A program made the translations under genes and the position numbers. A DNA stretch of 64,000 nt from Vulcanimicrobiota bacterium (GTDB lineage Bacteria; Vulcanimicrobiota; Vulcanimicrobiia; Vulcanimicrobiales; Vulcanimicrobiaceae), in NCBI GenBank assembly GCA_963820825.1, contig CAWGBN010000008.1, positions 1-64,000 on the forward strand. The letters are read 5' to 3'. Positions 24,764 to 45,023 of the stretch are shown one piece after another. Within the stretch, counting starts at the first letter, position 1; every line of letters begins with the position of its first letter. The notes beneath the pieces were generated by a model that was given only the letters and a program-made list of their open reading frames with translations, had not been told where the DNA came from and ran no database searches.

Positions 24764-25357
24764 ATGATGTCGAAGAACGGCGGCATCATCGGGGTCTCGG
24801 ATCACGGCGGTTGGGCCGTTTTCGTGACCGTGGCGCAGGACGGGACCCTCCTCGACCGTCGCCGCGCAGAACTTGTGGATGACGACCTGCCGGCGATTCC
24901 GCATCACCACGAAGCGCAACGGCTCCCATTGGACGAGGCCGTAGCTCTGGTCGAGCGCGTGCGTGCTTCGGCGGAGCGGCACGCAGCGCTCGCGTTGGAT
25001 GCTGTCGCCACGGCCGTGCCGCTGATCCGGGGCGTCGCCCTTCGTAACTGCCCCGAGCTTCCGCCGACCATTGCCGAACGACTGCACGACTACCGCGCAC
25101 GGAATGTCGCCGACTGGGTGATGTACCGCAAAGCGCTGGCGGCCGCTGCGGCCGCGCGCGGTTGGCCCGTCTACTGGTACGACTCAAAGAACGTCTTGAG
25201 CGCGGCGAGCCGGGCGCTGCGCGTCAAGGACTTCGACGCTTACTTCCTGCATATGCGGAGCGCCGTCGGGCCGCCATGGAATCAAGATCAGAAGCTCGCA
25301 ATGGCGGCGGCCATCGTCACGGCCGATCTCATTGCGCAAAACGGCCACGGGTCGTAA
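24764..25357 (+). CDS. conserved hypothetical protein
   Basis: IIGVSDHGGWAVFVT..LLDRRR..GPPWNQDQKLA. Confidence 0.7.
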   Translation: MMSKNGGIIGVSDHGGWAVFVTVAQDGTLLDRRRAELVDDDLPAIPHHHEAQRLPLDEAVALVERVRASAERHAALALDAVATAVPLIRGVALRNCPELPPTIAERLHDYRARNVADWVMYRKALAAAAAARGWPVYWYDSKNVLSAASRALRVKDFDAYFLHMRSAVGPPWNQDQKLAMAAAIVTADLIAQNGHGS

Positions 25358-25403
25358 GGCTGCCCGCTGGGATACCTTCGCGCCCCAGCGAACTAAGTCT
25401 AGG

Positions 25404-26736: not shown

Positions 26737-27132
26737 ATGAAGCGCGTCACCGGAATTGGCGGAGTATTCTTCCGTTCGAAAGATCCGTCGGCGATAAGCG
26801 CCTGGTACAAAGAAAAGCTGGGCGTGCCGGTCGGCGACGACGGCTATACGATGTTTCGGTGGCACGAGGCCGACGAACCGCATCGTCCGGGTCTTACCGT
26901 ATGGGCCGCGTTTGAAGCCGACACTGAGTACTTCGGCAAGCCGACGCAGCAATGGATGGTCAACTATCGGGTCGAGAATCTCGACGCGCTGCTCGAAGAG
27001 CTGCAAAGTGCCGGCGTAGAGATCGTGCCCCACCGCGAAGAGCACGATTACGGCAAGTTTGCCTGGATCGTCGATCCGGACGGAAATCGCGTCGAACTTT
27101 GGGAGCCTCCATCCGAAGAGGCAACACCGTAA
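26737..27132 (+). CDS. VOC/glyoxalase family protein
   Basis: MKRVTGIGGVFF..NYRVENLD..GKFAWIVDPDGNRVELWEP. Confidence 0.92.
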   Translation: MKRVTGIGGVFFRSKDPSAISAWYKEKLGVPVGDDGYTMFRWHEADEPHRPGLTVWAAFEADTEYFGKPTQQWMVNYRVENLDALLEELQSAGVEIVPHREEHDYGKFAWIVDPDGNRVELWEPPSEEATP

Positions 27133-28471
27133 TCGCTCAAATCCCGCCGCGCCCCGTCGTCACGATTCGTTACGCCCTCAGCATTGGCATCGCTGCCGCA
27201 TTGCTTGCGGCATGCGGGCAGCAAGCTGCGAATCTGACTCCTCAACGGCAATCGATGATTTCGCTCTCTCCACGGATGCTCTCGGGGAACGGCATCAGGT
27301 TCTCTACAGATTTCAAGGGAACAGCAGCAGCCAACGCGACGGGGATTTTCCCCACAGCAGCCTGATCGCCGTCAAGGACAGACGTTACGGCACGACGGCC
27401 ATCGGTGGCAACCTTAACTACTCTGCTTGTGGAGCGGGGAAGTTTTTCGCCGGTTGCGGCACGGTCTTCAAAATAAGCACCTCAGGCAAGGAGCACGTGC
27501 TGTACCGATTTGCCGGCGGCAGCGACGGCTTTTTTCCGTTGACAGGTCTGCTCGCAATGAGCGGCACGCTCTACGGAACGACGACCAGTGGCGGCCGGCC
27601 TTGCAAAAAAGGGGACTACGGCACCTGCGGAACGATCTTTGCACTTAGCCTCTCGGGGCAAGAACGTGTTCTGCACGCTTTCACGGGCCCTCCGGACGGC
27701 GCTATTCCATCTGCGAGTCTTGTCGCGCTCAACGGCAACCTCTATGGCACAACGTCCAACGGCGCTTCGCTACGCGACGGCTGCGATCGTCACGGCGGAT
27801 GCGGGGTCGTTTTCCAAGTGAGCCCATCTGGGACCGAACGCGTGGTCTATGCTTTTAAAGGCGGCGCGGACGGTGCATTCCCGTCCGGTCCGCTTCTCTC
27901 GATGCACGGAACCCTCTACGGCATTACGAGCGGCGGCGAGCACTGCGGCACAGTTTTCCGGGTGAGCACGTCCGGAAGCGCGAGCGTCGTGCACATCTTT
28001 AGTGCTTCGGGCGACGGCTGCCGGCCACTGGGCGGCCTCGCCGCGATCGACGGATTCCTCTACGGCGTGACGGCGTACGATATCGGCCGACGCGATTGCG
28101 ACTGCGGCACGGTGTTTAAACTGAGCACTGCCGGAACGGAGCGCGTCATCTATAGATTCAAAGGCGGAGCAGACGGTAAGGTGCCGCTTGCGGGTCTAAT
28201 CGCGCTTAAAGGCGCGCTCTATGGTACGACGGGTTCAGGTGGTACGGGATGCGGCTCGCCACTCGGATGCGGTACCATTTTTAAAGTTACGACGTCGGGC
28301 GTCGAACAGGTGCTCTACGCTTTCCAGGGCGGCACCGACGGCGCCGACCCGCAAGCTGGACTCTATGCACTCCGGGGCACGCTTTACGGAACCACCGCGG
28401 GAGGCGGCGGTTACACCTGCGGTTATGCCGGCAGCGAGAGCTGCGGTACCGTCTTTAAGATATTGCCGTGA
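27129..28471 (+). CDS. GloVer-type propeller lipoprotein, frameshifted near 27292; start codon unclear
   Basis: signal YALSIGIAAALLAAC in the 26952 frame; 7 repeats in the 27059 frame. Confidence 0.75.
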
Positions 28472-28985: not shown

Positions 28986-29952
28986 GTGAAAGCTGCCGTC
29001 GTTGCCGCTCCCGACGCCATCCCGCAATACGGTGAATTCCCCGAACCCCAAGTTGGCGACGGCTACGAACTTGTAGAGCTAATCGCTGCAGGGCTCCATC
29101 CGATCGTACGATCGCTGGCAGCGGGGCAGCATTACGGAAGCACGCGGTCGTGGCCCCTCGTCCCGGGCGTCGACGTCGTCGCTCGCACTTCAGCCGGCGA
29201 TCTCATCTACACCGGTTTTGTGCGTCCCCCGCACGGCACGTTCGCGGAGCGAATGGCGGTACCCAAAAAGATGCGCGTCTCGCTGCCCTCCGGAGCCGAT
29301 CCCGTGAAGGTTGCCGGCGGATTGAATCCGGCCTTCGCCTCGTGGTTGCCGCTCACGGCGCGCGTTCGCGAGATCGGCTCGCTCGAAACGGTCTTGATTC
29401 TCGGCGTGACCGGTATGGCCGGATATCTTGCCGTGCAACACGCGCGCCTACTCGGTGCAAAACGCGTCGTCGGGGTGGGGCGCAATCCGGCACGTCTTGC
29501 GCGCGCTGCCGGGGTTGGAGCTGCGACCGTTGCGCTGAGCGGCAATCGCGAGGCCGATGCCGCGGCAATCGTCGACGCTCAAGGCGGTACGGCGCCGAGC
29601 ATCGTGCTCGACTTTCTATGGGCGTCGGCCGCCGAGACTGCCTTCGCTTCGCTCGCACGGCGCGGGCTTGAAGAGGACACCGCCGACATTGCCTACGTGC
29701 AAATTGGCGCTACGGCCGGTCCCGAGGCGGCCGTGCCGGCGGCGCTCTTACGAAGCCGCCGCATTCGCATCTCCGGCAACGGCGCGGGTTCCGCGCGAAA
29801 TTGCCGATATCATGGCCGAAATCCCCGCCTACATGCAGCTGATCGCAGACCGCAGGGTCGACATCCCGACCAAAACGGTGCCGCTTTCGTCGATCTCGGA
29901 GGCTTGGGCTGCGTCGGCAGGCGGCACCGACAGGACGGTCGTCGTTCCTTGG
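28986..29952 (+). CDS. MDR-family quinone oxidoreductase/zinc-binding dehydrogenase, frameshift near 29796
   Basis: MKAAVV..PLVPGVD..VLILGVTG; C-terminus (AEIPAYM..RTVVVP) lies in the 29557 frame. Confidence 0.75.
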
Positions 29953-30071
29953 CAATTACCCCGTGCGGAACGCAGCGGGATGGGGGTCGCGACCCCGGCC
30001 GGGAACCGCCCGGCCCCGTCGAACGTTATCATTCTAGGGCATCCAGGGGGTCCAAACGGAGTAAGCGATTC

Positions 30072-31454
30072 GTGGTTCGACTCGGTTTTCGCCGCCGTGC
30101 CTTTGGCATGGGGCTCGCAGTTCTTATTTTGGCCGGGTGTGGCGGGGAGCAGAGTGCGTCGAGCGGCGGCGCCCTGCCGCGGCAGCTATCCCCTTCCGCC
30201 CGCGGCGGCCTCGATAAGATTCAGCACGTCGTCATTATCATTCAGGAGAACCGGAGTCTTGACAATCTTTTTCAAGGGTTTCCGGGCGCCGACACGCAGT
30301 CGTACGGCCGAGACAGCTCCGGAAGAAAGATAACGCTAAAGCCGATACCGCTGGAAACCACGTGGGACGTCGCCCACAGCGCGGAAGCGTTTTTTGAGTC
30401 TTGCAACGGAACGGGTAGTTATCCCGGAACCCATTGCCGGATGAACGGCTTCAATAAGGAGTACCACGGCTGCGGTCACGGCGGCTATCCAGCCTGTCCG
30501 TTCAAGAATCCGCAGTACGCCTACGTGCCGCAAGATGAAACCAAGCTTTACTTTGAGATGGCGCAACAATATGTTTTGGCGGATCATACGTTCGCGTCGA
30601 ACTTTGATGAGAGCAGTTTCGTCGCCCATGAGTATCTGATCGCCGGTCAAGCCGGCTCCACCGTAAACTTCCCATCCACGAACGAATGGGGTTGCGAAGG
30701 AGGGCCCACCGACACAATCCCGACGGTCAACCAAGAGCGAATCATAGATTATAACGATCCCATTCGCGTGTGCTTGAATAACTTAACGCTCGGTGACGAG
30801 CTCGACTCGGCCGGCGTTTCGTGGCGATATTACACTGCGGCCACACCGCACGGAAACGGCTCGTTCTGGAGCGCGTACTCCGCGATTAAACACATCTACA
30901 ACGGTCCGGACTGGGATAAGGATGTTATCAGCCCCCAGACGGTCTTCTTCACCGATGTTACGAACGGAACGTTGGCGGCCGTAAATTGGATCACTCCCAC
31001 CTGTGAGAATTCCGACCATGCGAGCTGCGGGTCGAACACCGGGCCGGCGTGGGTAACGTCGATCGTCAACGCAATCGGTCAGTCCCGGTATTGGAATTCA
31101 ACCGCGATCTTCGTAACCTGGGACGATCCCGGCGGCTGGTACGATCACGTGGCGCCGAAGATGCTCGACTACGATGGCCTCGGTTTTCGCGTACCGCTCG
31201 TGGTGATCTCCCCTTATGCCAAGGAAGGATATGTCTCACATGCTCGCTACGAGCATGCCAGCCTTCTTCGCTTCATTGAGGATCGGTGGGGGCTGAAAAG
31301 CCTCTCAACCAGCGATGCGCGCGCCCTATCGCCGGCAAACGATTGTTTCGATTTCAACCAACCGCCGCGAACGTTTCAAGTAATCCAATCCAGCCTGGGC
31401 AAGGATTACTTCATGCATCGGCCGCTCGACCCACGCCCGCCCGACAATGAATGA
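30072..31454 (+). CDS. phosphoesterase / phospholipase C family lipoprotein, paralogue 2
   Basis: LAGC lipobox; IQHVVIIIQENRSL; WDDPGGWYDHV; GFRVPLVVISPY. Confidence 0.88.
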   Translation: MVRLGFRRRAFGMGLAVLILAGCGGEQSASSGGALPRQLSPSARGGLDKIQHVVIIIQENRSLDNLFQGFPGADTQSYGRDSSGRKITLKPIPLETTWDVAHSAEAFFESCNGTGSYPGTHCRMNGFNKEYHGCGHGGYPACPFKNPQYAYVPQDETKLYFEMAQQYVLADHTFASNFDESSFVAHEYLIAGQAGSTVNFPSTNEWGCEGGPTDTIPTVNQERIIDYNDPIRVCLNNLTLGDELDSAGVSWRYYTAATPHGNGSFWSAYSAIKHIYNGPDWDKDVISPQTVFFTDVTNGTLAAVNWITPTCENSDHASCGSNTGPAWVTSIVNAIGQSRYWNSTAIFVTWDDPGGWYDHVAPKMLDYDGLGFRVPLVVISPYAKEGYVSHARYEHASLLRFIEDRWGLKSLSTSDARALSPANDCFDFNQPPRTFQVIQSSLGKDYFMHRPLDPRPPDNE

Positions 31455-31510: not shown

Positions 31511-33019
31511 ATTCTTAGAGGGCTGATAGCGGCCGTTGTCATCCCGGTTGCGGCTTGCGCCCGCGTTACCGCGCCCGTCTCTTCGTTGCCCGCGTCTCAC
31601 GCCGCGAGCACCGTCGTCGATCGAAGTGCGGCTCCGTGTACGGTAAGTTACGACGGAGTGATTTGGTATCGAGTCCGGGCGGGCGATTTTCCGCCCATCG
31701 ATGTGCGCTTGGCGAAGTGCGGCTTCAACCTTTTAGGTAGAAATCTGTCTCCGGATCGCCCGCATTGGTCGATACCATCGACCGCGACGCAGACGCGCTT
31801 CGTCTTTGGCTCTCTACAGGAGGCGGACTCGATGGAGGACACGCGTAACATCGAGCGAACGGCCGCTTCGCACCGCGTGCCGGTATCTTGGATGGTGGGC
31901 GATATCCAGCACATGGCCCGTGCCGCCGAGTACAACGCGTTTCACGCTGCGAACGGCGACGATGCCCAGGCTCAGTTCTATAGCAACCTGCATGCCGCGA
32001 TGAAGGCAAAGCTTCCGTGGTACGTTCCGGCCGTCGGCATTCTAACGGCCGGCGAAGAACGCGACGTTCGGCGCGCTCTCTCATTTGGCGAGCATGCGTT
32101 CTGGGGCATTACCTGGAACAGTCGCGGTACCGACGAGACATTCGACTACGGCGCGCCATGGGGCACCTATTGCGCCGACGTTCATTCCTACAAGCGGCCG
32201 CAGCCGGATGGGGGGTGCGCGCTGCTCGCCTTTGAGTGGACGGCGCGCGATCTGACGCGCGCGTACCTTAGCGGGCGTGAAGCGGCCTTCTCTACCGACC
32301 CCGACGATCTGTTGCGGCGCGGTGGATTCTCTCCGAAGAGCGCTGCCGCGTATTCGCGAAGAATTGTCGATGCATATGCTGCGGCCGGTCAGTCCCAGCC
32401 GATCGTCATGATCGTGCAGCAGGAGGCAAGTGACGGCTCCATTGCGGCCGACGCGGCGGTCTTGAGTGCGTTGTTCGACGAGGCCGTGCGTGACGGAATG
32501 AAACTCGAAACGCTAAGTCAGGCGTCTCGAGACGCTCGCACGTTCTCTGCCGCGCCGCGTGCGGTAGCGTTTCCGTACATATTTGGAGGTAGAGAAGTTA
32601 AGTCAGACGTGCTTCACGGCGGCACGCTCTATCCGGCGACGATCGACTATCACGACTCCCGCGTCAGCATGACATTTCTTTCGGGGCACACGTTGCCGAC
32701 CCGGGTGTTCCGATACGCGGACTATCCGGTCTCGCGTTTCAATCGCCCGCTACCCGAAGTGCCGGTTCGGGAGATGCCGTTGCTTCTGCGCGCGAGCGTT
32801 AAGGACGGATGGCTGACGTTCGCGTTCGCAGCGCCCCGAGCACTGCGTTTCGGAGTGGCAATCTGGAGCGATCCGTCGCAACTGAAGATTACCGGTCCTG
32901 GGGAGATCCGCGCGGGGCGCGCGGCTACGGTCTTGGTCTTTGACCTCAAGGCCGGCACGAGCAACGTGCGCTATCGCTGTAGGGGCTGTCGCAGCTCGAC
33001 GTTTACCTATTCGCTGTAG
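31511..33019 (+). CDS. hypothetical lipoprotein (possible DUF3863/deacetylase-like fold); true start upstream of 31586
   Basis: in-frame LIAAVVIPVAAC lipobox upstream of the first canonical start; WGITWNS..GAPWGTY..SYKRP..FEWTARD. Confidence 0.6.
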   Translation: MLRGLIAAVVIPVAACARVTAPVSSLPASHAASTVVDRSAAPCTVSYDGVIWYRVRAGDFPPIDVRLAKCGFNLLGRNLSPDRPHWSIPSTATQTRFVFGSLQEADSMEDTRNIERTAASHRVPVSWMVGDIQHMARAAEYNAFHAANGDDAQAQFYSNLHAAMKAKLPWYVPAVGILTAGEERDVRRALSFGEHAFWGITWNSRGTDETFDYGAPWGTYCADVHSYKRPQPDGGCALLAFEWTARDLTRAYLSGREAAFSTDPDDLLRRGGFSPKSAAAYSRRIVDAYAAAGQSQPIVMIVQQEASDGSIAADAAVLSALFDEAVRDGMKLETLSQASRDARTFSAAPRAVAFPYIFGGREVKSDVLHGGTLYPATIDYHDSRVSMTFLSGHTLPTRVFRYADYPVSRFNRPLPEVPVREMPLLLRASVKDGWLTFAFAAPRALRFGVAIWSDPSQLKITGPGEIRAGRAATVLVFDLKAGTSNVRYRCRGCRSSTFTYSL

Positions 33020-33091
33020 GCAAGACCACCCCGCCCGCGAGCCCGCACCGCGCTAGAAGGTCTTTAATCACTGATCTAAAACTGAGTCCAG

Positions 33092-33118
33092 CGCTACCCC
33101 GCGGTGCCGTGTCAGCAT
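33092..33118. repeat. displaced copy of secA 3' end, putative att site
   Basis: 18/23 identity to 42361-42383; minus strand reads HGTAG* versus secA HGTAA*. Confidence 0.6.
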
Positions 33119-33181
33119 CCAATTATTGAACGAAATGTTGGAGAAGCACTAACATTGCGAACGTCGGAAAACGCCTTCGCC

Positions 33182-33390
33182 GTGCGCGCTTCACCCCGTA
33201 TATTTCGTGCGGTCGGCGCGCTCGCTGTCCTTTGGGTACCCAGCCTTGCGGCATCGGCGCAGTCGGCGACGCCCAGCCCTGCGCCGTCTTCGACGCCGGC
33301 ATCGGTCTGGCAACAATCCGCCGAACACGCACTTCGCGATCTTTGATCCCTGCGGCGGCCCCAAGGAACTGCTTAATAAGTTTGGCCCCA
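33182..33390 (+). pseudogene. N-terminal stub of a secreted/transporter-like protein
   Basis: signal peptide, ATPSPAPSSTP linker, then DPCGGPKELLNKFGP in another frame; truncated. Confidence 0.4.
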
Positions 33391-33733
33391 GGCGCTCCGC
33401 TACGCGATCGGCGTGGGCCTCGTGCCAAACACCCTAAAGGTATCCGCGGAAACGAATCGCTCGGATCGATCTCAGCAACCCGCTCACCGCGCTGATCGCA
33501 ACCGCGCTGTCCTGGAGCGGCCTTACGATCTGGACATTAAGCTGGTTCGTATCCATGCCTCTGCTCGGCTTTCTACTCGCACGCTTGCGGCCTGTTCGCG
33601 GAATCGCGGGGAATCACTTTTCCGGAAATGCCTAGTTTTGCAAGGAAAACCACGGCTTTCTATGTACTCTGAGCATTCGGATCAAGCATGATTAGCGATG
33701 AAATAGGTGCGAGACACAAATAGGAGGGCTCCA

Positions 33734-34822
33734 ATGAAATCCTCGAGATTGGCATCCGGCGTCTTGGGCGCCATCGCCGCCGTCGCGCTTTTGGCCGGAT
33801 GCGGCAGCGGGCTACACTCCTCGTCCTTTGCGTCGGCCGGACAAGGCTTGGCGTCCGGGGGACGCGGGCTCGGACCGATCGGGCACCACTACCTGGCGAA
33901 CTACACCTCGGTACGCGCGCCCCAAGTCAAGCCCGACCATCACAAATCGTGGGTCTCGCCGGACGTCAAGAGAGCGCCTCGTTTACTCTTCGTCTCGGAC
34001 GACTCCTCCAACGACGTGTACATCTTCACGATGCCGGCGATGCAACTCAAGGGTACGCTGACGGGCTTTAACGGGCCGCAGGGTATGTGCTCGGACAAGC
34101 AAGGCAATATCTGGGTTGTCAATACCGGCACCAAACAGGGCCTCAAGTACTCGCGCACCGGCCAATTGCTGGGCTCGGTGAGCGATCCGTCCGGAACTCC
34201 GGTGGGTTGCGCGGTCAATCCGGCCAACGGCGACCTGGCCCTCAGCGAAACCCAAGGCTCCAGCGGCGCGGGCGCCATCGAAGTCTACCACAATGGCTCG
34301 GGAAGCCCCACCAGATATAGCAACCCGTCACAGTACGAGTACTTCTTCCCGGCGTACGACACCGATGGCAATCTTTACGCCGACGGCTTCAACTACCCGA
34401 CCTTTGCCGTCATGATTTCGGAGCTGCCGTCGGGGAGCAGTGCGATGCATACCGTCAACTACAGCGGCGGAACGATTCAATTTCCGGGTGGCGTGAACTG
34501 GGATAGAGTGAAGGGCCAGCTGGTCATCAACGATCAGGAGTGCCAGGGAGTCTACGCTTCGTGCGCGTACCAGCTGACGGTATCGGGTTCGAGCGCGACG
34601 ATTGTCGGATCCACTCCGCTGAACAACTTCGACGGCACCGCCTGCGACGTCGATCAAGGCACGATCGCTCCGTTTGGCAAGTACTTCGCGGGCCCGTGCA
34701 TCACCTTCGCATACAGCGTGAGCTCAGTGGATCGTTGGGCGTATCCGTCGGGCGGTACGCCGGGTCACTACAACAACTCGTTGGTCATCGAACCGATCGG
34801 TTCGGCAATCAGCAATAAGTAG
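33734..34822 (+). CDS. NHL-type propeller lipoprotein
   Basis: AGGAGG RBS; LLAGC; SWVSPD..LLFVSD..PQGMCSD..PVGCAVNP. Confidence 0.85.
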   Translation: MKSSRLASGVLGAIAAVALLAGCGSGLHSSSFASAGQGLASGGRGLGPIGHHYLANYTSVRAPQVKPDHHKSWVSPDVKRAPRLLFVSDDSSNDVYIFTMPAMQLKGTLTGFNGPQGMCSDKQGNIWVVNTGTKQGLKYSRTGQLLGSVSDPSGTPVGCAVNPANGDLALSETQGSSGAGAIEVYHNGSGSPTRYSNPSQYEYFFPAYDTDGNLYADGFNYPTFAVMISELPSGSSAMHTVNYSGGTIQFPGGVNWDRVKGQLVINDQECQGVYASCAYQLTVSGSSATIVGSTPLNNFDGTACDVDQGTIAPFGKYFAGPCITFAYSVSSVDRWAYPSGGTPGHYNNSLVIEPIGSAISNK

Positions 34823-34844
34823 CCGCGATTGTTCGAACGCCACC

Positions 34845-34937
34845 CTATCGCTCGCGGCTTGTTCGCGCATTCGGGCCGGGGCGCAGGTGCCGCATCCGCG
34901 GCATTGGGACGCGCTTCTCCAACATGCGCACTCGTAA
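34845..34937 (+). pseudogene. HTH-tail remnant, copy B
   Basis: LSLAACSRIRAGAQVPHPRHWDALLQHAHS*; homologous to 37768-37890 with mostly synonymous differences. Confidence 0.65.
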
Positions 34938-35019
34938 GCGCTCGCTCGGCTGGGGTAGCGCTGCGGCGTATCGAATGTAATTAGTCGTCGAACTGTCGAG
35001 GCCTCGGGGAGCAAATCAA

Positions 35020-36270
35020 ATGAGGATTTTTTCTTTCAACTGCTACGCGCTAAGTGTCAGCGTCGCGGCAGTATTGGTTACCGGGTGCGCGGGATCGCAG
35101 CCAATCGGCGCGCCAAGCGCGGCGCTGCAAAGCGGCATCAGGCCTGGATCGTCATCCTACAAGGTGCTCTACGCATTCGATGGCTTTCCGAACGGGGAAC
35201 AGCCGATCGGTGGGCTACTCGACGTCGGCGGCACGCTCTACGGCGCCGCCTCCAACGGCGGCCAAAGAAACTGCCGCCCGCGGGCAAGCGGCGGCTGTGG
35301 AACCGTTTTCAGCATTACGCCGAAGGGTGCGGAAAAACTGCTCTACACCTTCACGACAAAAACCGGAGTATACCCGGAGTCGGGTTTGATCGACGTCGAC
35401 GGCACCTTGTACGGCACGACGTATGAGGGTGGTCCAACCGGCGGCGGAACCGTTTACAGCGTCAGCACGACCGGATCTGAGGCAGTACTTTATAGTTTCA
35501 AAGGTACCACGGACGGCACGTATCCTCACGCAGGCGTGATCTCCGTAAAGCATATCCTCTACGGGACCAACACGTACGGCGGCGGTCGCCACCGCGACGG
35601 AGGAACCGTTTACAGCCTCACCCTGTCAGGCGTGCATACGGTCCTGCACAGCTTCAGAGCGACGACGGACGGGCACGACCCCGAGGGCGGTTTGATCGAC
35701 GTCCACGGCATACTGTACGGAACGACGGTTTTCGTTAGCCGTGCAGCAACCTGCTGCGGAATCGTTTATAGCATGACAACGACCGGCCAGGAGACGGTGC
35801 TGTATCGTTTTGCGGGTGGCTCCGATGGGCGCGGCCCGACGGGCGATTTGCTGAACGTCAACGGCACGCTCTACGGCACGACCAGTAGCGGCGGCGGCAC
35901 GGGATGCGGAGGCAACGGCTGCGGAACAGTCTACACCATAACGCCGAGCGGCACGGAGAACGTGCTCTACAAGTTCTTAGGCGGCTCCGACGGCGCGAAT
36001 CCAGAAGCCGGTTTGATCGATGTAAACGGCACGCTTTACGGCACGACGGCCGGCGGCGGCGCGGCCTCGTGCTCCTGCGGCACCGTCTACAGCATCAGCA
36101 CCAGCGGCACGGAGACCGTGCTCCATGCGTTCACCGGCGGCACCGACGGTAAGGACCCGCGGGCGCCATTGACCGCCGTCAAGGGCACACTCTACGGCAC
36201 CACTGCATACGGCAGCGATGGATGCAAGTCCCAAGAAGGTTGTGGAACGGTCTTCGCGTTGACTCCTTAA
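35020..36270 (+). CDS. GloVer-type propeller lipoprotein (7 repeats)
   Basis: GGAG RBS; VTGC; ends GTVFALTP. Confidence 0.9.
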   Translation: MRIFSFNCYALSVSVAAVLVTGCAGSQPIGAPSAALQSGIRPGSSSYKVLYAFDGFPNGEQPIGGLLDVGGTLYGAASNGGQRNCRPRASGGCGTVFSITPKGAEKLLYTFTTKTGVYPESGLIDVDGTLYGTTYEGGPTGGGTVYSVSTTGSEAVLYSFKGTTDGTYPHAGVISVKHILYGTNTYGGGRHRDGGTVYSLTLSGVHTVLHSFRATTDGHDPEGGLIDVHGILYGTTVFVSRAATCCGIVYSMTTTGQETVLYRFAGGSDGRGPTGDLLNVNGTLYGTTSSGGGTGCGGNGCGTVYTITPSGTENVLYKFLGGSDGANPEAGLIDVNGTLYGTTAGGGAASCSCGTVYSISTSGTETVLHAFTGGTDGKDPRAPLTAVKGTLYGTTAYGSDGCKSQEGCGTVFALTP

Positions 36271-36343
36271 ATCGCGCAAGGCGCATTTGGAATTACGGCT
36301 AACCCGTTCGCGACTGCACAGCCGGTAAAAAGGAGCAAAGCTT

Positions 36344-37609
36344 GTGACACACTGGAATCTTAATCGCTACGCGTTGAGATGCGGCGTCGTCGCTGCATTG
36401 CTTGCTGGCTGCGGGGGATCGCAGCCCCCGATCGACGCGCCTGGTCTAATGGCTCAAGGTCCAGCGCTCGCGGCACGCACCAGTAGCTCGAACTACAAGG
36501 TCGTGTATAGCTTTGGCGCACCCCCGGATGGAGGCTGCCCCCTCGCCGGTCTGATCGACGTGGGCGGCACGCTCTACGGAACGACGAGCGGAGGCGGGGC
36601 ATACACTATCGATAGCAACTGCTTTTATCACACGGGTCTATTCGGAACGGTCTTCAGTATTACAACGGGCGGCAAGGAGAACGTGCTGCACAGCTTCGGC
36701 AACTATCCAGACGGGAGCGAACCTGTTGCCGGCCTAATCGACGTGCACGGCACGCTCTACGGCACGACGAGGGGAGGCGGCAGCACCGCTGGGGGCGGCG
36801 GAACCGTCTTTAGCATCACCACGAGCGGCACCGAGCACGTTCTGCACAGCTTCCTTGGCAGAAAACCTGATGGCGATAATCCCAACGCATCTCTGATCGA
36901 GCTAAAGGGTAAGCTCTACGGCACGACGAGCAATGGCGGCAAGCACGTGAACAGCGGCGGAACGTTCTTCAGCCTTACGGCGGACGGCACGGAGAAAGTG
37001 CTCCACTTTTTCGGAGGAAGCCACGGCAGGAATGTCGAGGCGGGCCTAATCGATGCCGGCGGCGCGCTCTACGGCACGGCTTATTCGGGGGGCGCTTACC
37101 ACAAGGGCGTGGTCTTTAGAATCACTCCAAGCGGCAGGGAGAAGGTGCTCCACAGCTTCGGCAACGGAACCGATGGCGCTTATCCCACCGCATCCTTGAT
37201 CGAGGTAAACGGCACGCTCTACGGCACGACAGAATTCGGTGGCGCGTACAAAGGTGGCACGGTTTTTAGCATCAGCACGAGCGGCACGGAAGAAGTGCTG
37301 CACAGCTTCGGCTACGGGACCGATGGCGCTGATCCCGCGGCATCCCTAATCGAGGTAAACGGCACGCTCTACGGCACGACCAGCGAAGGCGGGTCGTACA
37401 GGTGCGGCCGCACCACTAAGTATTTCAACTGTGGAACTGTGTTCAGCATAACGCCAAGCGGCACGGAAGAGGTGCTCCACAGCTTCAGCAAAGGAACCGA
37501 CGGCACTCATCCGGTCGCGCCCCTGATCGACTTGAAGGGCACACTGTACGGCACGACGGAATATGGCGGCGCCAACCAAAACGGAACGGTCTTCGCGTTG
37601 ACTCCATAA
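36344..37609 (+). CDS. GloVer-type propeller lipoprotein (7 repeats)
   Basis: AGGAG RBS; LLAGC; ends GTVFALTP. Confidence 0.9.
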   Translation: MTHWNLNRYALRCGVVAALLAGCGGSQPPIDAPGLMAQGPALAARTSSSNYKVVYSFGAPPDGGCPLAGLIDVGGTLYGTTSGGGAYTIDSNCFYHTGLFGTVFSITTGGKENVLHSFGNYPDGSEPVAGLIDVHGTLYGTTRGGGSTAGGGGTVFSITTSGTEHVLHSFLGRKPDGDNPNASLIELKGKLYGTTSNGGKHVNSGGTFFSLTADGTEKVLHFFGGSHGRNVEAGLIDAGGALYGTAYSGGAYHKGVVFRITPSGREKVLHSFGNGTDGAYPTASLIEVNGTLYGTTEFGGAYKGGTVFSISTSGTEEVLHSFGYGTDGADPAASLIEVNGTLYGTTSEGGSYRCGRTTKYFNCGTVFSITPSGTEEVLHSFSKGTDGTHPVAPLIDLKGTLYGTTEYGGANQNGTVFALTP

Positions 37610-37714
37610 CGCGTATTCGCAATCAGGTGGGAGCCTGTACTTGATCCGCGCCGCGTCGACAACAGGAGCAAAGCATTGACTCTTAGTCGCGCCGCAACGC
37701 TGCCGTCAACCACC

Positions 37715-37890
37715 GCGCGAGGCGAGGCGATCAGCGAAGAGTATCGCCGCAATCGCGGCTGGGCGCGTTCTCGCTTAAGGAGATCGCCAAGGTTACAGGG
37801 TTGTCGCTCGCGGCCTGCTCGCGCGTCCGTGCCGGTGCGAGGGTGCCGCATCCGCGGCACTGGCTCGCCTTGCGCGAGCTCGTACAAGGA
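37715..37890 (+). pseudogene. HTH-tail remnant, copy C
   Basis: RGEAISEEYRRNRGWAR, frame change, then FSLKEIAKVTGLSLAACSRVRAGARVPHPRHWLALRELV. Confidence 0.65.
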
Positions 37891-38001
37891 GGAGAGCTTG
37901 GACGTAATCATGGATTCAGGTTAAACCGTGCCTCTCCCAGTTTTTCGCGACTATCGTCCAGCCGGCGACGTAATAGCGCGCTTCCCAACCAAAGGATACG
38001 C

Positions 38002-38433
38002 ATGCGAAACATTTTGATCGTCTTGGTGGCCCTCGTTGTCAGCTTGGTACCCCAAGTCGGCTATGTTCACGCATCGAGCACGCCTCCCACAACGGTTACG
38101 GCCATTGACATAGCCCTGGAGCCAGATGCGACGATGCTCCAGCACGCGGCGGCACTCAACGCGCGGTTGCGACAAAGCTTTCCAAAAGGATACGCACTCA
38201 ATGCGAGTCACCGCCCGCATGTGACCATGCTCCAACGGTACGTCCGCACAGCGGACCTCCCCAGAGTGTACGCAGCAGTAGAAAAAATCATGAGCGCAAA
38301 GAGTCCAGCAAGGTGGAAGCTTCAAGCATTCAAAATCGACCATGCCGTTTGGAGCGGCCTGGCTCTCACGGTCATTCTCGCCAAACCGCCGGCGTACGGC
38401 ATGGGCCGCTACACTCTTGCGCATGGAGTATGA
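38002..38433 (+). pseudogene. truncated secreted 2H-phosphoesterase-like protein
   Basis: signal peptide; AIDIALEPD..RPHVTMLQRYV with one HxT motif; second motif missing. Confidence 0.55.
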
Positions 38434-38434
38434 A

Positions 38435-39664
38435 ATGATTGCACGTTTCCGCGGCGTTGTCATGATCGCGGTGGTCGCGGCAATGCTCGCGAATTGCGAT
38501 GGATTGCAGACGTCGGTCAGACAGCCAGGCGCGATGCCCCAAAACATCACGGCGCCGGCGGCGTCGCAGCATTTGGGATCATCCGGCTACAAAATCCTCA
38601 CGAGCTTCAGCGGCCTTAATGGCGACAAGAACCCTGCTGGGGATGTAGTCGCGATGCGTGGTAAGCTATACGGCACTACCAGCGCGGGTGGTGTGCTTGG
38701 CGCAGTCTTCAGCGTAAACCCGGCTACCGGCACCGAGAGGGTGTTGCACCATTTTCAAGGCCAACCCGATGGCGCTGCCCCCCTCGCCGGTTTGACCGCC
38801 GTCGACGGCAAGCTCTACGGCACTACCGCTAGCGGGGGTGTGTATGAGGCCGGAACCGTATTCAGCGTGACCCGAGGCGGTAAAGAAACCGTGTTGTACA
38901 GCTTCGGCGGCTACGGCTCTGATGGCGAGTTGCCTCAGGCACCCTTGATATACGTGAATAGCGAGCTGTACGGTACGACATATAATGGCACCGGTTCTGC
39001 GGGCTCTGGTACAGTCTTCAGCGTTACTTTGAATGGCCAAGAGACAGTGCTGCATCGCTTTACGAATTATCCTAGTGACGGCGCGTGGCCCTTGGCTGGG
39101 CTCACCTATGTAAACGGGCTCCTATATGGCACTACGACTGCCGGCGGAACGACGCACGGGACTCATGGCGCGGGGACCGTCTTTAGCATCACGTCAGACG
39201 GTAGAGAGAACCTAGTTTTCAGTTTTCTTGGAGACACGAATGGCTCCGACCCAATGGCAGGCTTGATCAGCGCCAACGGCGCCCTCTACGGCACGACCAC
39301 GCAAGGCGGCAAGTACCGCTGTGGTACGGTTTTCCGCATCAGCAAGAGTGGGAGTGAAAAGGTCGTCCACAACTTTCGAAATGTTCCCGATGGCTGCTTC
39401 CCATATGCTGGATTGATCGATGTAAAGGGTACGCTTTACGGGACGACCGGCCACGGCGGATCATACTACCAAGGACGCGATGGTGGCGGAACCGTGTTCA
39501 GCATCGCGCCAACCGGCAAAGAAACGGTGCTGCATAGCTTTGGCTCGGGCACAGACGGGTCTGACCCGCTAGCCGGACTCACGAACCTGCACGGCACACT
39601 TTACGGAACGACAAGTCGAGGCGGCGCTCACGGTTACGGAACAGTCTTTGCATTGACCCCATAG
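38435..39664 (+). CDS. GloVer-type propeller lipoprotein (7 repeats)
   Basis: LANC lipobox-like; ends GTVFALTP. Confidence 0.88.
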   Translation: MIARFRGVVMIAVVAAMLANCDGLQTSVRQPGAMPQNITAPAASQHLGSSGYKILTSFSGLNGDKNPAGDVVAMRGKLYGTTSAGGVLGAVFSVNPATGTERVLHHFQGQPDGAAPLAGLTAVDGKLYGTTASGGVYEAGTVFSVTRGGKETVLYSFGGYGSDGELPQAPLIYVNSELYGTTYNGTGSAGSGTVFSVTLNGQETVLHRFTNYPSDGAWPLAGLTYVNGLLYGTTTAGGTTHGTHGAGTVFSITSDGRENLVFSFLGDTNGSDPMAGLISANGALYGTTTQGGKYRCGTVFRISKSGSEKVVHNFRNVPDGCFPYAGLIDVKGTLYGTTGHGGSYYQGRDGGGTVFSIAPTGKETVLHSFGSGTDGSDPLAGLTNLHGTLYGTTSRGGAHGYGTVFALTP

Positions 39665-39858
39665 CGGACGGCTCCCCGTACGCGAAATGGGTGCTTAGCG
39701 GAGGAGAGACGCACATCGATGCATCGGCGATCACATTCCATCCCCGTGCAGCGCCAAAAGCGTTACGCCATATAGCCTTTTCGCGACGCCGCGCGATTTG
39801 CAAACGGCGCTGCAAACTTTGCACGCGGCGCGGGCGATCGAGCGCGCTACCAAAAAGC

Positions 39859-40427
39859 CTGATATGTTACCGAACGGGCCGCGTTGAACGGTTCCCTTAA
39901 CCCGAAAGGGCGGGTCGGCACATCCTAAAACGCCTTGGGCTTCGAGCTCGGAAATAAGATCGATGGCCGACCCGATGACTGCTATCCTAGGAGATCGGAC
40001 CGTATCTTAGGCCGCGTACGTCGCGAAGCCTGTATGCATCAGGGTGATCGTTCGGGATAGCTTGCCGGCGAGTGAGGTGAGCGTGGAGATCCTAGGCATC
40101 GACGTCGGAAAGCACGAGATGCACGCAGTTCTGCTGCAGGACGATCGTTCGACATCGAAAAGCGTCGCCAATTCGGCAGCCGGTTTTAAGCAGTTACAGA
40201 GCTGGCTGCGCAATCGCAAAGCCGAGAGGGTGCACGCGTGCCTCGAGGCCACCGGCGGTTGGAGCGAAGATCTGGCGCTCGCGCTGCACGAGGCCGGCCA
40301 TGTCGTCAGCCTGGTCAACCCCATGCGCATCAAAGCATTCGCCAAGAGCGAGATGCTGCGGACAAAAACCGACCGCATCGATGCAGCACTCATTGCACGG
40401 TTCTGTCGTACGCATGTGCCAGGGGGC
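39859..40427 (+). mobile_element. IS110-family element, left end and 5' part only
   Basis: CT core at 39859-60; long non-coding left end; DEDD transposase N-terminus. Confidence 0.8.
39872..40062 (+). ncRNA. IS110 bridge RNA (5' stem, target-binding loop, donor-binding loop)
   Basis: stems CGGGTCGGC/GCCGACCCG and GCTATCC/GGATAGC each enclose an internal loop and inner hairpin; guides match the left junction. Confidence 0.75.
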
Positions 40428-40430
40428 TGA
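40083..40430 (+). pseudogene. IS110 transposase, truncated after the RuvC-like domain
   Basis: GAGGTG RBS; ILGIDVGK..CLEATG..VNP..KTDRIDAALIA. Confidence 0.92.
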
Positions 40431-40920
40431 GCCCCGGAATCTAGTCCAATGGGAATTGTGGGTTTCCGGCCAAGATGGCCTGCAAAGGAGACCCGCATGC
40501 GCAAGCGACGCTACACCGAAGCGCAGATCGTCGCGATCCTTCAAGAGCTCGACGCCGGCCGATCCGCAGCTGAGCTCGCTCGCAAACACGGCGTTCACGT
40601 CAACACGCTGCGACTGTGGCGAAGCAAATACGCCGGGCTCGACATCAGCGATCTCACCCGTCTGAAAGAGCTCGAATCCGAAAACTCGCAGATGGAGCGC
40701 ATTGTCGCGCGTCAAGCCCTCGAGATCCGCGCGATGTCCGAGGTGATTCGAAAAAACGGGTGGGGCCCTCAGCGCGCAAGGAAGCGGTGAGGGCGTTAGA
40801 GGACGAGGGGATGAGCCAGCGGCAAGCGTGCCGCCTCGCGACCTGCCCCCGACCGACCGTACGATACAAACCACGCAAACGCCCCGGCGACGAGCACGTC
40901 CGCGATCGGTTGCGTTGCAT
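40428..40920 (+). mobile_element. IS3-family element fragment (orfB truncated)
   Basis: begins near TGAGCCCC; orfA; A6C slippery site 40751-57; orfB start SQRQACRL; no DDE domain. Confidence 0.8.
40497..40790 (+). CDS. IS3 transposase OrfA
   Basis: MRKRRYTEAQIVAILQE..LARKHGV..WRSKYAG..RLKELESEN. Confidence 0.9.
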   Translation: MRKRRYTEAQIVAILQELDAGRSAAELARKHGVHVNTLRLWRSKYAGLDISDLTRLKELESENSQMERIVARQALEIRAMSEVIRKNGWGPQRARKR

Positions 40921-41123
40921 GGCGTTTAACGAAAGTGGAGATCCCTTGATTTGGATAGACGAATAGTCCTTAAACCTGCGTGCCGCATGAACCAGACCGC
41001 GGTGCGTCATTTGGTGCCTATCGGGAGTCGAATCAGTTAAATGTGCGTTCAAGTGGTCTAAGCTGGTGCGATAATATAGTAGGTTTATTTGTCCGTTCAC
41101 TCAGCGAAAGGAAATCGTGATCT

Positions 41124-42137
41124 GTGCAGGCTGTTGTAACCTTGGAAGCCCGTTATATATTTGTCGACATAGTCGGTTATACGTTAAAGCGCAGTATCGA
41201 AGCTCAAGTTGATTTAATAAAGGCTCTAAATGAAATCATCATTCAGGCCTTTGAGCGAGAGGGAGTCCCACGAGAGCGCTTGATGTTTTTTCCGGTCGGT
41301 GACGGCGTGTGTTCAGCCATTCTAGGAAACGCGCCGGATCGAGCTGCTGACGATTATGATGCTCACGTCCGAGTAGCTTTGCGAATGCTGGAATTGTTGC
41401 ATGAATACAACGCGCGCACGGAAGACGCGATGCGACGTTTCTCTATTCGAGTTGGGCTAAATGATAACATAGATAATGCCGTAACTGATATTAACGGAAA
41501 CGATAATCTTGCAGGCTCGGGAATTAACGGGGCACAAAGAGTAATGAGCGCGGCCGAGGCGAGTCAGCTATTTGTAAGCAGAGCCGTTTATGATAGATTG
41601 CGTGACCGCGAGTTCTATATGAATGCATTTCGAGAGGTATCAAGCTACACGAAACACGGGGAACGGCTCACTGTTTACCAAGTCATTCTTAACGATCGCC
41701 CTGGGCTTGATGTATCGCTTCCGAGGTCTCTGCAGGCTGCGGCTGAGCCTAGGCTGCCGCGCCTCTTAGGGTACTACATGCGCGCCGCTTTACAGCACCA
41801 GGAAGAGTTGCTCGGGATGCCTGAACTTCCGGGAAACTCGTTGTGGGAAGACGCGGCGCGCATCATGTATTATATGATGGCATTAGATGAGGAGGCGCAA
41901 GAACGTAAAGGTCCATACGATCCACCAACGTTGATGCTTAGTCCTCGGGGCGACGTGACGTTTAGAGAGCGCCTAGCGTACTATCACTCGCAGGATGTGT
42001 GGATCATTCATCTGCTTGCGCGCAAGATTGAGGCGCTGACGACGTTTACGAACTGCTTTGACGGACCGCGCTTTGTATACGTGAATGAGTGTGGTAGGGA
42101 GAAGCTTCGTATGGATCACCCGGACCTAGCTCCATAG
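41124..42137 (+). CDS. class III nucleotide cyclase domain protein with unknown C-terminal domain
   Basis: IFVDIVGYT; PVGDG; IRVGL; GINGAQRVM; visibly AT-richer than flanks. Confidence 0.85.
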   Translation: MQAVVTLEARYIFVDIVGYTLKRSIEAQVDLIKALNEIIIQAFEREGVPRERLMFFPVGDGVCSAILGNAPDRAADDYDAHVRVALRMLELLHEYNARTEDAMRRFSIRVGLNDNIDNAVTDINGNDNLAGSGINGAQRVMSAAEASQLFVSRAVYDRLRDREFYMNAFREVSSYTKHGERLTVYQVILNDRPGLDVSLPRSLQAAAEPRLPRLLGYYMRAALQHQEELLGMPELPGNSLWEDAARIMYYMMALDEEAQERKGPYDPPTLMLSPRGDVTFRERLAYYHSQDVWIIHLLARKIEALTTFTNCFDGPRFVYVNECGREKLRMDHPDLAP

Positions 42138-42160
42138 CCGCGAGCAGCACAACCCGCCCA

Positions 42161-42312
42161 CGCCCGCGAGGCCGCATCGCGCTAGGCGCTTAGCGTAGCC
42201 TCGCCGCTGCGCAGCACGGCGCCGATCGCGTGCGCAATTGCGCCTCGCAGTGCCTCGCAGTCTCGCAGCTTAGGTTATCGATACTTGGCGCTTAGATCGC
42301 GCCGCAGCTTAG
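42161..42312. repeat. element-end repeats next to secA (hairpin plus tandem CTCGCAG x3, GCTTAG x4)
   Basis: 23/25 match to 33032-33056; GCCTCGCAGT at 42242 and 42252, CTCGCAG at 42262. Confidence 0.65.
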
Positions 42313-42362
42313 CCGGCCCAGCGCAGGGGGCCTCGTTTTGAAGTGGTCTAACTCCTATCCCG

Positions 42363-45023
42363 CTATGCTGCCGTGCCGTGGCACTTCTTGTATTTTTTTC
42401 CGCTGCCGCAGGGGCACATTTCGTTGCGGCCGACCTTCGGCTGTTCACGCTGCATCGGTTTGGTGGGTGACTCGTCGTCTTTGTTCGTGTGGAACTGTTG
42501 GACGCGCCGGCCGGCGCCGGGCATTGGGCCGAGGAGCTGTTCGACTTGTTGCGCCGGTAATGCGTTGCCGGCGGCAACCGGTTGCGGCACAAGTTCGCCC
42601 GAGGGAATCGGCTCGAACTGCGGCGGGGGCGGGCCACCCGGCGAGTACGGCGTGAGCTGTTGCGGCGGCGGACCGTGCTCGATGACGACGCGAAAGACGC
42701 CTTTGATCGCTTCGTCGGCGATGTTGTTCTTCAGCGACTCGAAGATCTCGAAGGCTTCCTTCTCATACTCGACGCGCGGGTCTTTTTGACCGTAGCCGCG
42801 CAGGCCGATGCCGGTCTTCAAGTGATCCATTACGTAGAGATGGTCGACCCACTGGCGATCGATGATCGGCAGCAAGAGATAGCGCTGCTCGACCACGCGC
42901 AAGATCTCCGGCGTTACTTCCTTCTCCTTGGCTTCGTATGCTTCGCGCGCTTTCTGCTGCAGCACGCGGCGAATCTCTTCGCGGTCCTTGCCGGTTAGTT
43001 CGTCGACGAAGAGGCTGCGCTTCGCGGGAAAGACCAGATCGAGCGCGTTGAGCATCTCGGGGAGGTCCCACTCCTGCGGATGGACGTTCTCGGGCGCGTT
43101 CTCCTCGAGCGCTTCGTTGACTTTTGCCTCGAGCGTCTGCGTCATGAACGTCCGCGAATCGAACGTTCCTTCGAGAATCGCACGGCGGTCGGCGTAGATG
43201 ATCGTGCGCTGTTTGTTCATCACGTCGTCGTATTCGAGCACGTGCTTGCGAATCTCGTAGTTGTGATTCTCGACCTTGCCCTGCGCGCGCTGAATCGACT
43301 TAGTCACCAAGCCCGATTCGATCGGCTGCTCGTCGGTAAAGCCGACGCGCTCCATGATGTTCGTCATCCGGTCGCCGCCGAAGAGGCGCATTACCTCGTC
43401 TTCAAGCGAAACATAGAAGCGCGACGAGCCGGGGTCGCCTTGGCGCCCCGAGCGTCCGCGTAGCTGGTTGTCGATCCGCCGCGACTCGTGGCGTTCGGTG
43501 CCGATAATGTGCAGGCCGCCGTTCTTCGCGACGCCTTCGCCGAGCTTGATGTCGGTGCCGCGCCCGGCCATGTTGGTGGCGATCGTCACCTGGGCTTCTT
43601 GGCCCGCGTCCTTGATGATCTCGGCTTCTTGTTCGTGATACTTCGCGTTGAGCACGTTGCACTCGACGCCCTTGCGCCGCAGCATCGTCGCGAGCAGCTC
43701 GCTCTTCTCGATCGAACGCGTGCCGACGAGCACCGGCCGGCCCTTTTTGTGCTCGTCGATGATCTCGTCGACCACCGCATCGAACTTCGCCTTCTCGCTC
43801 TTGTAGACGATGTCGGAGTTGTCTTTGCGGACCATCGGCATGTTCGTCGGTACGACGACGACGTCGAGGCCGTAGATGTCGCGGAACTCTCGCTCCTCGG
43901 TCTTCGCCGTACCGGTCATGCCGGCGAGATGATCGTAGAGCCGGAAGAGATTCTGAAAGGTAATCGTCGCCAGCGTCTGGTCCTCACCGCGGACCTTGAT
44001 ACCTTCCTTCGCTTCAATTGCCTGGTGGATGCCGTCGGAGTAGCGCCGACCGTACATCAGGCGCCCGGTGAACTCATCGACGATGATCACCTCGCCATCC
44101 TTGACGATATACTGCTGGTCGCGATGGAAGAGGTTCCAGGCCTTGAGCGCCGCGTTGAGCTGATGCGTCAGCTCGATGTTGCGCTGCTCGTAAAGATTCT
44201 GGATGCCGAGCATCTTCTCGACGTGGGCGACGCCGGTTTCGGTGATTGGAACCGCGTGCGCCTTCTCGTCGACGGTGTAATCCTCGCCCTTCTTTAGCCG
44301 CGGCAGAATCTGCGCGAACTTGTCGTAGAGCTCGCCCGACTCTTGCGAGGGTCCGCTGATGATCAGCGGCGTGCGCGCCTCGTCGACCAGAATCGAGTCG
44401 ACTTCGTCGACGAGCGCGAAGTAGAGCTCGCGTTGGACGAGGTCTTCGACTTGCCAGGCCATGTTGTCGCGCAGATAGTCGAAGCCCACCTCGTTGTTCG
44501 TAACGTAGGTCACGTCGGCGTTGTAGGCGTCGCGGCGCTGCGCCGAATCGAGTCCGTGCTGAATGATGCCGACCTTCAAACCGAGGAACTCATAGATCGG
44601 GCCCATCCACTCGGCGTCGCGGCGGGCGAGGTAATCGTTCACCGTAACGACGTGAACGCCGCGTCTTTCGAGCGCGCGCGCGTAAACGGGAAGCGTCGCG
44701 ACGAGGGTCTTGCCTTCGCCGGTCTTCATCTCGGCGATGCGCCCCTCGTAAAGCACTTGACCGCCCATGATCTGGACGTCGAAATGACGCATCCCGACGG
44801 TGCGCACGCCGGCTTCGCGGACGACCGCAAAGACCTCGGGCAGCATATCGTCGAGCGCCTCGCCCTGCTCGAGCCGGCCGCGAAACTCGGCGGTCTTCGC
44901 TTGCAGCTCGGCGTCGGAGAGCGCCTTGATCGATGCTTCGAATTCGTTGACGGCCCGCGCAGTGCGCCGCAGACGTGCGACTTCCCGCTCGTTACCGTCG
45001 ATGATGCTTTTAATGAACGACAT
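42363..45023 (-). CDS. secA: preprotein translocase ATPase SecA
   Basis: [42 protein letters not shown]. Confidence 0.99.

Follow-up and report, generated by a model that had tools for sequence, protein, structure and literature searches.

The 64,000-nucleotide stretch of DNA from a Vulcanimicrobiota bacterium analysed here (positions 1 to 64,000 of contig CAWGBN010000008.1, assembly GCA_963820825.1; hereafter the window) contains three short peptide-coding fragments with a helix-turn-helix (HTH) character, each lying ahead of a gene for an exported protein. These fragments are probably the 3′ remnants of genes for casposases, the Cas1-type integrases of casposons, and the tails they encode likely do nothing now. 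When the tails, the complete elements of related genomes, the target of those elements at secA and their cargo are considered together, we judge it likely that the array in the window consists of scars left by casposons that merged or decayed.

The identity of the tails was established from their relatives. A library search without a length limit returned 1277 relatives of the motif at E ≤ 0.001, and twelve of the best 150 were 414–614 amino acids (aa) long. In all 12 of these, the Cas1 domain (PF01867; matches in relatives at E 1e-33 to 1e-41) was found N-terminal to the tail, and the protein ended in a zinc ribbon followed by the HTH tail, bearing out a link to solo, casposase-like Cas1 that the preliminary description of this DNA, made from the sequence alone, had proposed. 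For example, P0124 (545 aa), which is 77% identical to a fourth tail copy in the window's own genome (G000:C8:405325-405453; G, C and L numbers are our handles for genomes, contigs and loci), runs from the Cas1 domain through a C-x2-C ... C-x2-C ribbon into the tail. Across an alignment of 14 long proteins (A4), P0124 residues E236, H254, D266 and E269 were invariant, which we take to be the catalytic E/H/D/E pattern of Cas1, and the four Cys of the zinc ribbon were at least 90% conserved. No Cas2 was detected among the open reading frames (ORFs) scanned around the cas1 loci. The best solved-structure match of the long relatives was 6OPM (E 3.7e-18), the Methanosarcina mazei casposase, whose HTH is essential for integration according to the accessible text of PMC6977970.

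The tails and the genes they precede are arranged in the window as follows, up to the remnant of a terminal repeat.

33443..33610, plus strand: copy 1, plausibly a decayed casposase HTH tail (profile E 0.035)
33707..34822, plus strand: NHL/beta-propeller lipoprotein gene, likely start 33734 (lipobox ..LLAGC; weak NHL/SGL Pfam matches)
34803..34937, plus strand: copy 2 of the casposase tail (profile E 1.9e-15)
35020..36270, plus strand: GloVer lipoprotein gene 1 (TIGR03803, E 1.8e-59)
36344..37609, plus strand: GloVer lipoprotein gene 2 (TIGR03803, E 2.2e-81)
37649..37893, plus strand: copy 3 of the casposase tail, in two frames (profile E 3e-23 and 2.2e-4)
38002..38433, plus strand: exported protein with a signal peptide, cargo (sole Pfam match the 2',5' RNA ligase family, sub-threshold at E 0.0014)
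38435..39664, plus strand: GloVer lipoprotein gene 3 (TIGR03803, E 6e-77)
39750..39870, no strand assigned: remnant of a right terminal inverted repeat, inner part, with the outer tip decayed (84% over 83 nt to the repeat of G113:C5)

The order is tail 1 and the NHL gene; tail 2 and two GloVer genes; tail 3, the exported protein and a GloVer gene; and then the repeat remnant, after which come insertion sequence (IS) fragments, a cyclase-like gene, an attachment-like sequence and secA. The core peptides described beforehand were recovered at the same positions and with the same translations, namely TLAACSRNRG for copy 1 (33581-33610), LSLAACSRIRAGAQVPHPRHWDALLQHAHS followed by a stop for copy 2 (34845-34937), and a translation beginning FSLKEIAKVTGLSLAACSRVRAGARVPHPRHWLAL for copy 3 (37768-37890). 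A profile of the motif family, made from 50 members, was searched against all 2212 six-frame pieces of the window. Copy 3 matched at E 3e-23 over profile positions 69-117, and a second piece, upstream and in another frame, matched positions 17-57 at E 2.2e-4; copy 3 is therefore taken to span ~37649-37893 with a deletion of ~64 nt, keeping about 100 of the last 120 codons of the casposase gene in two frames, and blastn aligned it to G113 cas1 as two segments. Copy 2 (E 1.9e-15) keeps the last ~35–40 codons without a start codon and aligned to P0124 residues 498–537 by tblastn. Copy 1 aligned over ~33443-33610 and ranked fourth of the 2212 pieces, and because its E value was 0.035 against 0.25 for the next piece, its reading as a heavily decayed casposase tail is plausible but marginal on this profile match.

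Copies 2 and 3 could be compared over 26 aligned codons, of which 13 differed (19 nt differences); eight of these changes were synonymous and five were not, in keeping with the earlier remark that the differences are mostly synonymous. At the nucleotide level the copies are ~24% different from one another and each is nearer to copies elsewhere, and they therefore derive from different casposon lineages. A usable start codon is lacking in all of the window's copies, and decay grows with distance from the inverted repeat and from secA. Each copy does lie upstream of an exported-protein gene, as had been described, with the signal-peptide or lipobox gene beginning 70–125 bp downstream in every case; three of these downstream genes are GloVer genes (TIGR03803, E 1.8e-59 to 2.2e-81) and one encodes an NHL-type propeller (weak Pfam matches). 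Pfam and NCBIfam gave only sub-threshold HTH matches on the tail peptides, Rfam gave no family within 33000-42500 at E ≤ 1, and profiles of full-length Cas1 and of the polymerase described below matched the two strong tails and nothing else in the window, neither core nor polymerase.

Complete elements were found in related genomes. In G113, from the window's genus, cas1 is present as three full-length genes and numerous fragments, and self-comparison delimited a conserved core of ~7.8 kb in which a polymerase-like gene and two small genes run divergently from cas1. Elements with the cas1–polymerase pair are 12–18 kb long and have ~200-bp terminal inverted repeats, which lie at both ends of element A in G113:C5 and element E in G113:C3 (alignment A3); more right ends were identified in L065, L066, L070, L073 and L129. 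An inverted-repeat scan of one element returned no terminal repeats, and the ends emerged later from junction comparison. The ~200-bp terminal sequence abuts the stop codon of secA in G113:C3, G092, G032, L065 and L073. A 12-bp direct repeat, GCCGCCGCATAG, stands on either side of element A (12.8 kb) and is identical to the 3′-terminal 12 nt of secA in G113; G113:C3 carries three tandem elements, the last touching secA. Judged from their sequences, the cas1–polymerase elements of these relatives are casposons, with a layout of left repeat, outward cargo, probable family-B polymerase, small genes, cas1, outward cargo and right repeat, and their insertion site in the window's family is the stop codon of secA, where tandem copies are frequent.

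Remnants occupy the same neighbourhood. Past the secA 3′ end there are Cas1 genes or fragments, including tails, in G000, G010, G113, G092, G032 and G097, at distances of a few kb and up to ~23 kb in G010, and cas1 is likewise placed in L065, L068 and L073, so that the motif is linked to secA in the window's family. No cas1 was found downstream of the secA 3′ end in G009 or G042, and contig ends preclude a call in G071, G044 and G060. A transfer RNA (tRNA) target was rejected because no tRNA gene was present in the window or in 9 related loci. In the window, the remnant at 39750-39870 is the only match to the G113:C5 repeat, and its orientation is that of a right end when aligned with five element ends (A3). 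It starts ~85 bp past the last GloVer gene, as compared with ~45–100 bp past a GloVer gene in L070 and L129, and is ~2.5 kb from secA. The remaining features on that side are as follows.

40044..40790, plus strand: N-terminus of an IS110-family transposase, then directly an IS3-type OrfA (PF01548, E 2.2e-21; PF01527, E 1.1e-20)
42140..42366, minus strand: attachment-like sequence of ~40 bp resembling the repeat tip, then the 'R1' repeat (conserved after the secA stop)
42366-45023, minus strand: secA (Pfam SecA domains, E 3.2e-127)

The ~40-bp attachment-like sequence after the secA stop was conserved in 9 of the 11 genomes compared. R1 (window 42140-42366), a genus-specific repeat, has an abundance of CTGCGAGGC-like units; 28 bp of it are found again immediately to the left of the tail array (33029-33056), and copies occur in the G113 loci, where those of G113:C5 flank an IS110-family transposase gene. 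R1 may be native DNA, may form the end of a different element, or may serve as a target of IS110. Further upstream in the window, an 822-aa frame at 28986-31454 combines zinc-type dehydrogenase and phosphoesterase-family domains, and may represent two genes or a fusion.

The large neighbour of cas1 is probably a very divergent family-B DNA polymerase. It is 1000–1165 aa long and, in alignment A2, contains the stretches D-T-E-T, F-N-x2-Y-D, Y-D-V-x-K-T, K-x3-N/x-S-G-x-Y-G, Y-C-D-T-D-S and K-x-Y, presumably the ExoI–III, A, B, C and KxY motifs of family-B polymerases. Thirteen of its 14 PDB profile matches were family-B polymerases (weak, best E 6e-4), TIGR00592 matched weakly (E 9e-4), and a Foldseek search with a poor predicted model placed Pol alpha/Pol II and DEDD exonucleases first (best E 2.6e-3), and none of its matches reached E ≤ 0.001. 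Between cas1 and the polymerase gene lies a conserved gene for a small HTH-like protein. No HNH gene was found by Pfam, NCBIfam or PADLOC, and PADLOC reported Cas1 and nothing else.

Among the 121 genomes of the window's family (tallies that include the window's genome and the unpublished G051), P0124 had a match in 33 and the large neighbouring protein in 19. A wider scan confirmed 195 long-Cas1 relatives in species-representative genomes; in the best 80 of these, which were inspected, the polymerase gene adjoins cas1 in 60 loci, spread over several phyla. Hosts of the loci include Eremiobacterota, Acidobacteriota, Chloroflexota, Actinomycetota, Gemmatimonadota and others. The preliminary description had proposed searching around full-length relatives for polB, integrase, secA and GloVer genes; a probable family-B polymerase gene was found beside cas1 in repeat-bounded elements, which insert at the secA 3′ end and carry GloVer or NHL genes.

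Several observations on the polymerase and its neighbours were made alongside these. Two cultured Tunturiibacter strains of the Acidobacteriota (L107, L137) have the pair of cas1 and polymerase genes in their complete chromosomes. The polymerase at L046:7095-10589 and its relatives have a C-terminal HTH-like stretch with a pattern resembling the casposase tail, so that both outward-facing terminal genes would end in a similar DNA-binding module. The window's own genome has an apparently intact divergent polymerase gene at G000:C2:407504-410281 (1017-aa frame, 35% identical to the G113 polymerase), with a GloVer gene ~3 kb downstream; no cas1 was found near it with PF01867, and the region G000:C2:403819-410281 probably represents the left arm of a casposon. 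At G000:C8:379343-384225, ~21–26 kb away from the fourth tail copy (405 kb), there is a decayed casposon that belongs to another subfamily and has a cas1 pseudogene (three stop codons) and a polymerase fragment.

The cargo connects the window to these elements. In the window's genus, the elements have GloVer and NHL lipoprotein genes in the arm that follows cas1. GloVer or NHL genes follow an intact cas1 and precede the right repeat in L063, L066, L070 and L129, and GloVer/NHL lipoprotein genes stand next to the polymerase in G113. The arms of other elements hold Mrr, genes for type I restriction, Hcp or PAAR. The best relative of the window's GloVer gene 1 (7 repeats), among the loci examined, is a GloVer gene inside a G113:C3 element, and GloVer gene 2 is 57% identical to the G113:C3 GloVer gene between cas1 and the inverted repeat. 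Homologues of the NHL gene follow an intact cas1 in L066 and L090, and the stretch from copy 2 to the beginning of the following gene aligns collinearly with an intact cas1 and its downstream lipoprotein gene in G113:C5. The window's genome has 148 GloVer repeat matches in ~32 gene loci (grouped by hand), of which ~7, at 3 places, lie no more than 10 kb from a casposon marker; the GloVer family thus has casposons as one of its carriers and is also at home outside them. Three further GloVer-like lipoprotein genes in the window (2692-3927, 25332-26561 and 27059-28468) have no detectable tail ahead of them. Palindromes resembling GAACGTTC occur 40–60 bp ahead of the start codons of several tail-following cargo genes (L042 ~11330, L043 ~16090, L047 ~13640 and window ~35000); they could be an operator or part of an extracytoplasmic function (ECF)-type promoter, and a cargo promoter inside the tail is possible.

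The simplest explanation of how the array arose is one by fusion and deletion. Casposons would accumulate at one site, and deletions would then strip the inner repeats and the redundant cores while the cargo is kept. The right arms of neighbouring or successive casposons would in this way become fused, with a 3′ stub of cas1 staying before each former arm, and each tail would mark the left edge of a former right arm. We favour this account because repeat tips are deleted at tandem junctions, because an extra tail fragment lies 0.2–1 kb downstream of an intact cas1 in L061, L062, L083 and L098/L101, and because a lipoprotein signal-peptide stub is fused to a tail in L083. Tail-plus-cargo units are also present inside the right arm of intact elements elsewhere, and the array of the window may have arrived ready-made. 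A second tail array was observed in another genus (L047/L048, G010:C45:171-192 kb), with 7 tails or cas1 fragments beside secA and a different cargo, namely Hcp, PAAR, DUF4760 and a chromate transporter; the 8.7 kb closest to secA have an attachment-like repeat of 36 bp on each side.

A number of results weigh against this interpretation or parts of it. No inverted-repeat remnants were found between the three units of the window, so three independent insertions here are not demonstrated. The interpretation in the preliminary description is supported in its broad outline by the secA-targeting, cargo-bearing casposons of relatives, but the three units may have an origin other than three separate insertions at this place. 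The local history is not simple, in that the attachment-like sequence directly follows secA and the repeat remnant is ~2.5 kb off, past the IS fragments and the cyclase-like gene. A clean target-site duplication was obtained for one element only, and the head-to-head repeat tips are deleted at both inner junctions of G113:C3. A hand count of the 94 rows of P0124 matches among the family genomes gave ~31 tail-only remnants, ~13 longer C-terminal parts and ~2 internal N-terminal-only remnants; random deletion alone does not explain this bias of ~44 5′-truncated tails or C-terminal parts to ~2, and the better conservation of the tail aids detection but cannot be the whole answer. No polymerase remnants were found in the window or in the G010:C45 array. 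With respect to the polymerase itself, Pfam gave no match at E ≤ 1e-4, the predicted structure is poor (mean predicted local distance difference test score, pLDDT, 42.9), and the identification draws on motifs and weak scores. A scan for consensus promoters, which would miss unusual ones, detected neither a sigma-70-like promoter within the tails nor an excess of terminators.

The 3′ bias is also the starting point of a different explanation, in which the tail-coding DNA is an active recombination or docking site at which 'tail plus gene' cassettes are stacked in a site-directed, integron-like manner. The excess of tails among cas1 remnants would fit this, as would the recurrence of tail–cargo–tail arrangements (the window, G010:C45, G113:C5, L061, L062, L083 and L098), the absence of polymerase remnants from both tail arrays, and the observation that conservation always stops within the final few cas1 codons, beyond which the copies diverge. 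However, the 5′ breakpoints are scattered (P0124 residues ~238–521) with no common motif seen at the left edges, the tail is free to vary at synonymous sites, with 8 such changes in 26 codons, and the cargo gene of L083 is cut through, as untargeted deletion predicts. We therefore regard a docking site as unlikely, and an integron-like cassette system was rejected on the variable tail starts and the lack of a visible boundary motif. Equally improbable in our estimation is the broader proposal that the tail is a cargo-building module, either as a joining point at the 3′ end of cas1, where lipoproteins, restriction enzymes and type VI secretion parts are stacked as cassettes, or as HTH-only proteins that bind the repeats and block casposition; if it were true, casposons would be a cargo-accreting platform that spread GloVer surface proteins in the Eremiobacterota.

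Two further explanations were considered. The peptides could be decayed stand-alone HTH regulators of ~118–120 aa with no more than a domain in common with Cas1, or domesticated tail proteins such as casposition inhibitors. In support of this, a length-limited search returned 531 proteins of 46–147 aa at E ≤ 0.01, many of 118–120 aa and mostly from Candidatus Cybelea, some of which are named HTH regulators by their sources. These small ORFs, however, align to P0124 residues ~425–545 and start just past the zinc ribbon, where L, I, A or M stands in full-length proteins (a G113:C5 fragment, for example, has the stretch C..C-M-P-K-A). Gene callers would start at that residue in any fragment reaching it, and we accordingly interpret the small ORFs as the gene-caller product of 5′-truncated cas1. 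Since the long relatives are Cas1 proteins and not ordinary XRE regulators, and the small ORFs are the Cas1 C-terminus, a stand-alone XRE-type regulator was rejected; the window copies, moreover, have no usable start codon and copy 3 is frame-shifted, leaving little probability for this explanation in either form. Least probable of all, and barely credible, is an origin by local segmental duplication, in which one tail-plus-lipoprotein unit was copied without the help of a mobile element. The units do all run in the same direction and the GloVer genes are paralogues, but the ~24% divergence of the copies, each nearer to other loci or genomes, and the dissimilar cargo of the three units (NHL; two GloVer; exported protein and GloVer) argue against it, as does the casposon inverted-repeat remnant that closes the array. 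Decay and merging of casposons at secA is the explanation we retain.

Compared with known systems, the elements appear closest to the family 3 bacterial casposons described in the accessible text of PMC4046053, with which they share a bacterial host, a solo Cas1 (here with a probable family-B polymerase), terminal inverted repeats, target-site duplication and variable cargo. One of these, AceAut-C1, has zinc-binding and HTH domains both fused C-terminal to Cas1, like the present casposases (PMC4046053, same portion). They differ from family 3 in a polymerase too divergent for Pfam, in having no detected HNH gene, and in their hosts (Eremiobacterota, Acidobacteriota, Chloroflexota, Actinomycetota and Gemmatimonadota). 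A 2016 census, in its accessible part, lists 'a handful' of bacterial casposons, all intergenic (PMC4779613), whereas the duplication found here comprises the terminal 12 nt of secA. Site-specific insertion at the 3′ terminus of an essential, conserved protein-coding gene that stays intact is shared with family 1 thaumarchaeal casposons, which insert at the 3′ end of the aEF-2 gene (accessible text of PMC4046053) but differ in their archaeal hosts, protein-primed polymerase and target gene; the family 1 casposase is without an HTH domain in what is accessible of PMC8464041.

Reuse of one target, tandem arrays, inactivation of some copies and remnants that lose their repeats are also known from Methanosarcina and M. 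psychrophilus casposons and from Tn7 islands at glmS (accessible portions of PMC4046053 and PMC4779613). The remnants reported in those portions are solo inverted repeats and not solo tails, and ordered arrays of casposase 3′ tails and cargo are not described there. Integron arrays likewise have accessory genes in one direction, a short conserved element before each and an integrase-type gene in intact relatives; in contrast, the present arrays have no tyrosine recombinase or attC-like site, their breakpoints are variable, and their conserved element is a gene fragment. A literature search (subscription journals lay outside it) found no paper joining casposons with secA or Eremiobacterota, and the papers found joining casposons with Acidobacteria do not report such elements.

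The feature in the window is itself a decayed remnant, and its value is as a pointer to a widespread group of bacterial casposons whose target and type of cargo are both new. The CRISPR adaptation machinery is believed to descend from casposons. The motif leads to a large bacterial group of casposons, as against the few bacteria listed in the accessible part of the 2016 census (PMC4779613), and one branch combines a precise target, the secA stop codon, with a cargo of surface lipoproteins. This would offer a new site-specific Cas1-type integrase for study, for which the cultured Tunturiibacter strains are possible laboratory models, and it would tie a selfish integrase to turnover of the cell-surface repertoire in a little-known phylum.

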